Below are positions 1 to 11,785 of a stretch of DNA of 64,000 nucleotides, piece by piece. The stretch lies in assembly GCA_965223155.1 (NCBI GenBank), contig CBDCVR010000015.1, positions 704,001-768,000 on the forward strand, read 5' to 3'. The notes under the pieces were generated by a model that was given only the letters and a program-made list of their open reading frames with translations, had not been told where the DNA came from and ran no database searches. Source of the DNA: Candidatus Multivoradales bacterium. Lineage in GTDB: Bacteria; Acidobacteriota; Thermoanaerobaculia; Multivoradales; JAHEKO01. Every line of letters starts with the position of its first letter. The first letter of the stretch is position 1. Position numbers and translations under genes: made by a program.

Positions 1-95
1 CGATGCTCCCATCTGTCACACGGTGTCGGGGCCACCAAGGATACTTTCGGAGTCATCGAACCTCTCAATCCGTCCTTGCTTGTTGGTCGTCTAGT
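1..95 (-). ncRNA. Putative bridge RNA module downstream of the recombinase (candidate target-binding loop), truncated by the window edge
   Basis: CCTTGGTGG-CCC-CGACAC-CGT-GTGACAGATG scaffold homologous to the upstream module; GGCCCCGAC matches the element flank at 8/9. Confidence 0.55.
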
Positions 96-103
96 TATCT
101 CTT

Positions 104-1117
104 CTACGCTGCCTTGGGAAAGGCTCGGAAGCTCTCACCTGTCACCCACAGCCTGTGGAGCAACACCGCGATCTTCCTAGCTAGCGCGACCACGGCCTTG
201 CCCTTACCCAGCCTCTCGACCAGGCCCTCAGCCCATCTCTTGAGTGACGACTCTTTGCGACAGTTCAACGCCGCATGAGCTGCCTGCACCAAGAGTCTGC
301 GCATCTCCGAGTCGCCCTCGCGAGTGATCCGGCCCCTGACCTCATGCCCTCCTGAGCTGCGAAGCGACGGTCTCAAGCCCAGACACGCTCCGACGTCGCG
401 GCTTTTCTCGAACCGATCCGGACGATCCATCCAGCCGACGAACGCAAGGCTCACCAGAGGCCCCACACCAGGAACCGTCTGCAGCCGACGGACCAGCTCG
501 TTTGATCTCGACTCGGAGATGAGGTCGTCTTCGAGATGGTGGATCCGATCGGTCAGCTCGCCGATTGTCGTTACCAGAGGTTCGAGCGCTCCCAACAGGC
601 CGGCTTCGACCGACATCGACGCGTACCGAGCCACGAAGCTCTTCGCCGGACATGAGGGCACTCGGTAGCCCTGTGCCCGCAGCGTTCCGCGTACGGAGTT
701 GATCAGCGAGGTCCTGGTCTTCACCAGACTCGTTCGGACCCGAAGACGCGTCCGAAGCTCTTGGGCCTCACCTGTGCGCTGGTAGACTGGTCGAAGCAAA
801 CCCAGATCCAACCGGCTCAAACGAGCCAGGATCTCGGCGTCGATTCCGTCCGTCTTCAGGGTCGATTCCGCGATCAGACGTACCCGGCGTGGATTGACCA
901 CCATCACCTCATGGCCGAGCTCAGACAGCAGTCGATAGACCCAGGGTGTGACCGGACCGCTCTCGAGCGTCACCTGCGAGCGTTCCCGATTGGCGAAGAA
1001 CCTTCGCAGGCCCGTCTCGGTCGTCGGAACCCGCCGGCGAACCGTCACCTCACCGTCTTCTGATACGCCACACACCTCGCTGTACTTCGAGTGAACATCG
1101 ATGCCAAGATACTCCAT
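104..1117 (-). CDS. IS110-family transposase / bridge recombinase (DEDD RuvC-like domain plus C-terminal Tnp domain)
   Basis: YLGIDVH...LESG...KTDGIDA (DEDD), TVPGVGP, LGLRPSLRSSGG (catalytic Ser), KAVVALARK; AAGGAGA RBS before ATG at 1117. Confidence 0.95.
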   Translation of the reverse strand: MEYLGIDVHSKYSEVCGVSEDGEVTVRRRVPTTETGLRRFFANRERSQVTLESGPVTPWVYRLLSELGHEVMVVNPRRVRLIAESTLKTDGIDAEILARLSRLDLGLLRPVYQRTGEAQELRTRLRVRTSLVKTRTSLINSVRGTLRAQGYRVPSCPAKSFVARYASMSVEAGLLGALEPLVTTIGELTDRIHHLEDDLISESRSNELVRRLQTVPGVGPLVSLAFVGWMDRPDRFEKSRDVGACLGLRPSLRSSGGHEVRGRITREGDSEMRRLLVQAAHAALNCRKESSLKRWAEGLVERLGKGKAVVALARKIAVLLHRLWVTGESFRAFPKAA

Positions 1118-1334
1118 GGTCGGTCTCCTTTCTCGGCTCTGATGCCGATTCTTGGTTATCTCCAACTGGCACAGTGTCCCAGCTGGAGACCGACCGACTC
1201 ATCTCATCTGTCACCCAATCTCCGCCCCTCAATCTTGGCCTACGTGCGACGGGCTTCCGGTGTGTCCGCCCGAAAGCCCGTCTGGTTCTGGCGGAGGTTT
1301 GTGTCGTTATCCACCAAGGTCCCTTGCGGGACAC
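1118..1334 (-). ncRNA. Putative bridge RNA module upstream of the recombinase (candidate donor-binding loop)
   Basis: GTCCC-GCAA-GGGAC hairpin, CTTGGT/ACCAAG closing helix, nested CTCCGCC/GGCGGAG and GACGGGCTT/AAGCCCGTC stems; shares motifs with 1-70. Confidence 0.6.
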
Positions 1335-1525
1335 TCTCAGGCTAGTCAGGGCCGGAGCCAGCCGCTATCGCACCGCTGCTTGGAGCGCAATTTGTCAGGA
1401 AAGCGGCGGTGGGCAACTGCCCGTGCCGCTGCCCGGCGCATCCTGTGAGGCCACGAAGCAACTTCGTCCTCGGCGGGTTCGGAGCACTGCCACGGGAGCG
1501 CCGCGCTAGACTCCCCCCGGCCCCG

Positions 1526-11710: not shown

Positions 11711-11745
11711 GTCGCGGTGTCGTCGCAGTGGGTGTCGTCGCGGTG
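11711..11745. repeat. Tandem 15-bp direct repeat GGTGTCGTCGC(A/G)GTG x2, plus a partial copy
   Basis: 11716-11730 and 11731-11745, 1 mismatch; upstream of the gene starting at 11633. Confidence 0.7.
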
Positions 11746-11785
11746 ACAGGATACCTATTCCCCCGCTATGGAAGACGGCCCTCTT

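Follow-up and report, generated by a model that had tools for sequence, protein, structure and literature searches.

An IS110-family element at the start of the window

The stretch under study comprises 64,000 nt of Candidatus Multivoradales bacterium (GCA_965223155.1, contig CBDCVR010000015.1, positions 704,001-768,000, equal to G000:C15:704001-768000), and is called the window below. Its first 1207 positions hold, on the minus strand, most of an insertion sequence (IS) of the IS110 family, which is 1,362 bp long and runs from window 1207 to 155 bp past window position 1. Bases beyond position 1 are given negative numbers. An earlier annotation made from the letters of the window, here the sequence-only reading, had described this element as a recombinase flanked by two homologous RNA modules that together form a split bridge RNA. 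Because the window cuts the element, its ends were invisible to that reading. With the ends in hand, we put the probability at about 0.9 that the bridge RNA or seekRNA is a single, unsplit RNA encoded by the long 3′ non-coding end, where it lies downstream of the transposase gene and is oriented like it. The element and its immediate surroundings comprise the following parts.

1-1207, minus: part of the IS inside the window; the first base of the left end is 1207 (block shared by 14 copies, and an empty/occupied site pair)
G000:C15:703846-704000: right end of the IS, its last 155 bp, outside the window
104-1117, minus: gene of the transposase (bridge recombinase), 337 amino acids (Pfam, NCBIfam and Protein Data Bank matches)
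1118-1207, minus: left non-coding end and 5′ untranslated region (UTR), 90 nt, with a perfect hairpin (minimum free energy, MFE, -45.5 kcal/mol)
1189-1202, minus: left subterminal inverted repeat ATGAGTCGGTCGGT, 14 bp, read from the sequence
1208-1215, minus: left target half GGTGACAG, flank DNA and not IS; the AG core at 1209-1208 is repeated at the right end
1216-1345, minus: flank unique to this copy, not part of the element; holds CCTTGGTGG-ATAA-CGACAC (1319-1301) and a stable stem-loop

Assignment of the gene to the IS110 family, already proposed in the sequence-only reading, was confirmed by profile searches. The protein matched PF01548 (DEDD_Tnp_IS110; 8.5e-25, residues 4-147) and PF02371 (Transposase_20; 4.5e-21, residues 210-289), and scored 241.3 bits against a cut-off of 140 with the NCBIfam equivalog NF033542, 'IS110 family RNA-guided transposase'. 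Structures of ISCro4 (9t56, 3.3e-10) and IS621 (8wt6, 6.2e-10) were also matched. Candidate catalytic residues D7 (GID), E52, D90 and D93 (TDGID) and S255 (SSG) align with the motifs of ISCro4 9t56, the N-terminal stretch of this alignment being weak by itself (i-Evalue 1.1).

Published descriptions of the IS1111 subgroup give it subterminal inverted repeats of 7-17 bp, such long repeats being specific to the subgroup, and a transposase of 330-350 amino acids with a GL-P----S(t)G motif. The present element has a 14-bp subterminal repeat, whose right partner, the reverse complement ACCGACCGACTCAT, is separated from the right end by 5 bp and falls outside the window. It has unequal non-coding ends (90 nt on the left, 258 nt on the right), a downstream RNA, in that a covariance-model match falls in the right end, and a 337-residue transposase in which the motif reads GLRPSLRSSG (residues 247-256). 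By these published features it is very probably an IS1111-type member of the IS110 family.

Ends and insertion point of the element

We searched the extended region against the whole of its own genome with BLAST. Fourteen full copies were found, 99.6-100% identical over 1375-1391 aligned bp. A further copy on contig C7 is broken into two pieces, and a relative with 81-82% nucleotide identity is present twice. Identity between the copies begins at window 1215-1227 and stops at window -159 to -167, and the block common to all of them extends from 1215 to -159. The element does not end at the ACTAG at 91-95, an ending that would have placed the downstream module outside it. Aligned flanks showed the left junction GGTGACAG in 14/14 copies; on the right, 13 copies are followed by GATAC and one by GATGC. 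Since this right flank varies whereas the IS body is invariant there, GATAC/GATGC are target bases.

The insertion point was proven by a pair of sites with the same surroundings, one empty (contig C14, locus L051) and one occupied (contig C11, locus L052). The two are identical over 59 bp to the left of GGTGACAG and 60 bp to the right of GATAC, and the difference between them is a 1362-bp insert, placed with an ambiguity of 2 bp (AG). Together with the shared copies, this pair defines the element as window 1207 (ATGAG...) to ...CATAGAAG at C15:703846, with core AG. Both the pair and the junctions of the 14 copies show insertion to be site-specific, at a 2-nt core and without a longer target duplication. 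The boundaries proposed in the sequence-only reading must accordingly be moved. Its left end near 1345 is replaced by 1207, its GA or AC core by AG, and its predicted right end, GGATAAC-GA followed by TG(C), by CTCATAGAAG followed by GATAC. The TAGCCT -10 box that it had placed at the boundary lies near 1345, ~130 nt beyond the true left end, and is rejected as a feature of the element.

Contigs of four public runs break exactly at both ends, and depth is about nine-fold higher inside (~70 within the element versus 8 outside in run X4). At the locus, these contigs held no joints, circle junction or empty-site contig, an observation from which absence cannot be concluded. A search with the flank in 30 relatives gave no orthologous empty site, only matches of 29-55 nt in the neighbouring coding region in 7 other genomes.

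The left end has features of its own. Around the perfect inner hairpin, pairing is possible between the left subterminal repeat GTCGGTCGGTCTCC and the Shine-Dalgarno/start region GGAGACCGACCATG (window 1103-1207, minus). This arrangement of the left end and 5′ UTR is conserved in the relative with 81-82% identity (the sibling IS) and in a homologue from an Acidobacteria metagenome-assembled genome (L017), and GGTCTCC...GGAGACC pairs of a similar kind are visible in homologues. Such pairing may silence translation of read-through transcripts. The C7 copy (G000:C7:10426-13195) is split by a ~1.37-kb insertion encoding a Mutator-family transposase (PF00872, 1.9e-64), and is thus a case of nested IS.

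Two guides in the 3′ end match the target

The 3′ non-coding end of the element carries, inside the window, a loop whose two sides match the two halves of the insertion site. Its parts are as follows.

2-57, minus: target-binding loop (fold, covariation in the sibling IS and in homologues, helix support, covariance-model match at window 4-55 with 36.5 bits)
57-49 with 9-2, minus: basal stem of the target loop, GATG-A-CTCC with GGAGCATC
44-37, minus: 5′ guide GTATCCTT, reverse complement of the right junction A-AG-GATAC
36-22, minus: apical hairpin GGTG-GCCCCGA-CACC, separating the two guides
19-13, minus: 3′ guide GTGACAG, identical to the left target and core
12-10, minus: ATG matching the left end
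61-71, minus: 5′ strand GGATTGAGAGG of an outer closing stem; its partner CCTCGATCC lies past the window start, and the stem closes around both loops (MFE and centroid folds)

The 5′ guide GTATCCTT would pair with the top strand of the target, to whose right half plus core it is complementary, while GTGACAG repeats the top-strand sequence of the left half and core and would pair with the bottom strand. Both matches overlap on the core AG (in transposase sense, CT on the other strand, as read from the L051/L052 pair) and jointly specify the 12-bp site GTGAC-AG-GATAC. Extra bases that follow the target guides (T37, and ATG at 12-10) match the IS ends, not the target, and may act like the handshake guides of IS621.

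This layout accounts for the resemblance between the two sides of the gene. The strings quoted in the sequence-only reading are present on the minus strand: CCTTGGTGG-ATAA-CGACAC at 1319-1301 and GTGACAGATGAGATGAGTCG at 1214-1195 upstream, CCTTGGTGG-CCC-CGACAC-CGT-GTGACAGATGGGAGCATCG at 40-1 downstream, and GGCCCTGAC at 1353-1345. The downstream module does belong to the element and represents the target-binding loop, being common to the copies and supported by fold and covariation. The assignment of its parts has to be reversed. What had been taken for scaffold contains the true guides, namely the CCTT end of GTATCCTT and GTGACAG, whereas the 'variable patches' GGCCCCGAC and ATAA, proposed as guides, are bases of the hairpin loop or of the flank. 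The 8/9 match of GGCCCCGAC to GGCCCTGAC and the pairing of AGTC with GACT link a hairpin loop to non-element DNA, and we read both as chance. As for the third shared block, GTGACAGATG, the left junction consists of target GTGACAG and the first IS bases ATG, and the 3′ end holds the guide that matches this junction. The left junction resembles the 3′ module because a guide matches its substrate; the repeat is an identity of guide and substrate, not a duplicated RNA scaffold.

The site GTGAC-AG-GATAC forms the conserved centre of a palindromic repeat, present in this genome, that resembles repetitive extragenic palindromic (REP) sequences. The core of this repeat family, GTGACAGGATAC, occurs at 17 unoccupied sites in the genome, among them window 11743-11754 (plus strand), G000:C15:702795/702884, C13:301095-301163 and C14:561682-561738. 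Such sites often form inverted pairs ~55-90 bp apart, and are often preceded by 2-3 tandem copies of a short variable word (for example GTGAATTCG, GGGGAGATCGG, GGTGTCGTCGC), with a partly complementary word following the site.

Guides and targets change together

Within the same genome, guides and target can be compared with those of the sibling IS.

G000:C13:297851-299161 and C15:372319-373624 (loci L049, L050): two copies of the sibling IS, 86% identical to the element in amino acids and 81-82% in nucleotides, with the same ends and scaffold

The loop of the sibling IS reads AAAAGGGTT-[GGAG..CTCC]-GTGCCAG, and its two copies sit in GTGCCAG / CCTTTCC and GTTCCAG / CCCTTTT. Both guides have changed along with the target, and the apical stem shows a compensating swap of T:A to A:T. 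The C15 copy of the sibling has GAAC in place of GAAG at its right junction, which is what a mismatch between donor and target at the second core base would leave.

Homologues were collected from two sources. A search for named relatives gave 2 loci only, L017 (85% amino acid identity), the only close relative found in this way, and L018 (28%), which was left out of further analysis. The other was a set of 301 genomes from the same class, in which 38, the present one included, gave a match at E ≤ 1e-40. Loci L031, L041 and L043 are missing from some guide tables where a contig end cut the locus or an anchor was not found. The 3′ ends of the homologues share the anchors [G/A]ACT[C/G]CG ... AGAT(G)G[G/C]AGC ... 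ATGCACCG ... GAGTGCGAAT[A/G]GAAGC.

We then compared each guide with the junction of its own element and with those of others. With the right junction, 24 distinct 5′ guides had a mean longest match of 7.50 nt in cognate and 3.75 nt in non-cognate comparisons; for 20 distinct 3′ guides, the mean longest match to the left junction was 6.40 versus 3.48. The observed mean was reached in 0/5000 permutations for each guide set. Related elements share targets, so that the guide draws are not independent, yet the effect remains large and several guides are unrelated in sequence. Homologue L025 (G202:C8) has junctions that fit a TG core, with target GGTACC-TG-TTTCAC and both guides matching, from which it follows that the core dinucleotide is not fixed among these homologues. 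Covariation of guide and target supports an RNA guide, as the sequence-only reading had proposed, and places the guides in the strands of the 3′ loop.

Predicted structure of the RNA

The 3′-end RNA folds with an MFE of -53.1 kcal/mol (z = -2.46), and 2/200 shuffled sequences folded as well. We aligned 29 homologous sequences with MAFFT. L031, cut on its 3′ side, was excluded, as was ISb_C15, identical there to ISb_C13; L044 and L045 were not caught by the extraction pattern. A 20-pair model comprising the basal and apical stems of the target loop, the apical stem of the donor loop and an inner hairpin, written by hand and partly derived from the same sequences on which it was counted, was paired in 88.2% of cells over the 29 sequences versus 79.4% in shuffles (0/500 as high). 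Changes on both sides were seen in 8 pairs, and sliding the model by 1-3 columns lowered pairing to 26-43%.

A covariance model built from the 29 homologous RNAs was searched against the window and against locus L001, 4.4 kb around the element. It recovered the true RNA with 111 bits (36.5 bits for the part inside the window), and detected no free-standing RNA module outside the IS in the DNA searched. An Rfam scan of the same 4.4 kb gave 0 matches at E ≤ 1, with neither the RNA nor the flank covered. In each of the 29 aligned homologues the two loops are located 3′ of the gene, which contradicts the proposal that the donor loop lies 5′ and the target loop 3′ of the coding sequence.

Probable donor side and possible junction promoter

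Beyond the window, ~60 nt further 3′ than the target loop, lies a second internal loop; with the right end it spans window -5 to -154. It carries AATAGAAG, equal to 7-8 nt of the right end CATAGAAG, and its other strand ends in CAT, complementary to the left-end ATG. In three homologue groups the loop sequence AT[A/G]GA[A/C]G tracks the right-end CAT[A/G]GA[A/C]G (ATAGAAG, ATGGAAG and ATAGACG), and in L025, where the left end starts with ATT, the loop carries AAT. Judged from these matches, the second loop is probably the donor-binding loop.

The best surviving alternative is that the 3′ RNA seeks the target only, the second loop (AATAGAAG / CAT) being scaffold and the ends being recognised through the 14-bp repeats and target halves. 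The 5′ strand of the second loop offers the left end only 3-4 nt (CAT) and skips the core, an 82-nt RNA is reported to suffice for ISEc11, whose reprogramming required a change in the donor flanks (bioRxiv 10.1101/2024.04.26.591405), and the long subterminal repeats are specific to the IS1111 subgroup. On the other hand, the loop follows the right end in the three homologue groups, the geometry of the second loop mirrors that of the target loop, and donor loops have been predicted for IS1111 members too by Durrant et al. (PMC11208160). We consider a purely target-seeking RNA unlikely, and retain a two-loop RNA as our reading.

The right end also carries a TTGAC, resembling a -35 box, which starts 28 nt from the end and is found at 27-28 nt in 27/28 homologues, confirming a prediction of the sequence-only reading. 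Excision of the element as a circle would place this box ~17-18 bp from a hexamer formed by GAAG, the final four bases of the right end, and AT, the initial two of the left end. A recombinase of the DEDD/Ser type would exchange the strands at the core.

Several observations weigh against a complete two-loop guide RNA of this kind. We infer transcription of the RNA, its ends and its binding by the transposase from sequence. Some cognate guide/flank matches are short, with a minimum of 3 nt for the 5′ guide and 4 nt for the 3′ guide; these are single copies, whose sites may be off-target or decayed. From the MAFFT alignment, RNAalifold retained only 9 pairs, of invariant type. On the donor side, pairing with the left end is limited as described above, the covariation of right end and donor guide amounts to about two independent changes among related sequences, and L024 and L025 were mismatched in this comparison. 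Finally, a scan of the linear element for sigma-70-like sites revealed no promoter, and the predicted junction hexamer fits the -10 consensus at only 3/6 positions.

The upstream block is flank of this copy

The block at 1319-1216, to which the sequence-only reading had assigned the donor module, is flank, since identity between copies starts only at window 1215-1227. Unrelated DNA occupies this position in the other 13 full copies and in both sibling copies. Its ~86-nt stem-loop, correctly recognised from the letters, is stable (-44.3 kcal/mol, z = -2.95; 0/200 shuffles as good) and lies in this flank (1216-1300, minus). A terminator-like hairpin with a T-rich tail is predicted at 1278-1294 (plus strand), between the IS and a plus-strand open reading frame at 1409-2065.

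We looked for further signs of relationship between the block and the IS. The pattern CCTTGGTGG-N2-6-CGACAC occurs 16 times in the genome, 15 times in internal IS 3′ modules and once in this flank. Local alignment of the flank (305 nt) with the 3′ non-coding end scored 18, where shuffled sequences averaged 17.3 (sd 2.1), and 0/228 covariance-model matches at E ≤ 10 in locus L001 and the window overlapped window 1200-1360. The loop anchors GACTCCG (before) and AGATGGGAGC (after) are missing from the flank, and no transposase remnant was found upstream by tblastn. One finding fits our reading poorly: the flank shares with the 3′ end a colinear match of 9+6 nt, a kind seen 106 times elsewhere in the genome, which amounts to ~0.002 expected per 150-nt flank, for a match that was picked post hoc and is common to no other copy. 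This match is locally rare and left unexplained, yet it is no component of the element.

Three explanations of the block were considered. The upstream CCTTGGTGG-ATAA-CGACAC could be the decayed target-loop relic of an older, related IS1111-type element beside which the present copy happened to land, perhaps through shared use of one repeat-rich spot. Apart from the rarity of the match, this idea draws on homologue L021, which carries GGACCTTGG at the same place of the loop, and on the clustering of IS copies and fragments in the genome, such as the split C7 copy and a 43-nt left-end fragment beside the sibling on C13. The absence of further similarity to the IS or a relative, of a covariance-model match, of both anchors and of a transposase remnant makes such a relic improbable.

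The fragment on C13 (G000:C13:299287-299329) is itself a solo end remnant, inverted, 97.7% identical to the left end of the IS and ~125 bp past the aligned end of the sibling.

Still more remote is local exaptation, in which the block would be a free-standing, diverged target-loop-like RNA used in trans by the resident recombinase, as its CCTTGGTGG...CGACAC hairpin base, long stem-loop and end at the left junction of the element might suggest. If true, this would make it half of a bridge RNA that occurs naturally by itself, and solely at this locus.

The split bridge RNA itself, with a donor module 5′ (1319-1195), a target module 3′ (40-1), guides GGCCCCGAC/ATAA and AGTC and a GA/AC core, is the least credible of all, the comparison of copies having refuted it as a feature of the element: CCTTGGTGG, CGACAC and GTGACAGATG do occur in the same order in both stretches, the colinear match is rarely expected, and 26 of >350 ISfinder entries are reported to have long non-coding regions at both ends (bioRxiv 10.1101/2024.04.26.591405), but the 5′ block lies outside the element, its pattern is unique to the flank, the hairpin loop that holds the proposed guides does not vary with the target, the core is AG, and both loops are 3′ of the gene in 29/29 aligned homologues. 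Taken together, these results correct the sequence-only reading: there is no natural split bridge RNA here. The term 'split bRNA' is in published use.

Relation to known systems

A single RNA in the 3′ end agrees with what has been described for IS1111 elements, in which the seekRNA derives from the downstream non-coding region and a top-strand match stands 5′ of a bottom-strand match that overlaps it (bioRxiv 10.1101/2024.04.26.591405).

A nearby comparison is ISPpu9 of Pseudomonas putida (PMC12288879), also of the IS110 family, inserted in REP sequences and provided with a small-RNA gene downstream of its transposase gene. ISPpu9 is reported to be accompanied by extra solo copies of the small-RNA gene and by modular circles; for the present element, an exact-pattern scan of the genome gave no free-standing module outside IS copies except the short, unexplained flank match.

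With IS621 (PMC11208160; PMC11208158), the element shares a DEDD and Ser recombinase, a 2-nt core (AG here, CT on the other strand), and a predicted pair of internal loops, each built of basal stem, guide, stem-loop and second guide, the donor guides being probable. It also shares extra guide bases matching partner DNA and a -35-like box in the right end, placed where a circle junction could complete a promoter. Read on the opposite DNA strand, where the core is CT, the target loop would reproduce the geometry of left-target, right-target and handshake guides of IS621. The two differ in that the RNA lies in the right end here and not in the left, with the order of guides reversed relative to transposase sense, in that the subterminal repeat is 14 bp rather than 2-3 bp, and in the probable donor loop, whose long guide here faces the right end, with only ~3-4 nt for the left end.

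The closest likeness is to the IS1111 seekRNA elements. ISEc11, ISXne4, ISKpn4 and ISPa11 likewise have a downstream non-coding region and subterminal repeats, and their transposases fall in the same size range with the same motif (GL-P----S/TG). Siddiquee et al. (bioRxiv 10.1101/2024.04.26.591405) describe natural reprogramming between the close relatives ISEc11 and ISXne4, as is seen here for the IS and the sibling with 86% identity. The present element differs from these in its host lineage and in its target, GTGAC-AG-GATAC in a REP-like repeat, and is described here from its sequence. Placed by these descriptions, it is in all likelihood a new member of the known IS1111-type bridge/seekRNA elements, and introduces no new principle. 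It adds a well-bounded RNA-guided IS from a little-studied lineage, with 14 copies, a proven empty site, a 12-bp target and two guides. With the retargeted sibling and the 29-sequence alignment, it forms a small natural data set on guide/target rules, core choice (AG/CT, and TG once) and donor-loop design in the IS1111 branch, which is less characterised than IS621.

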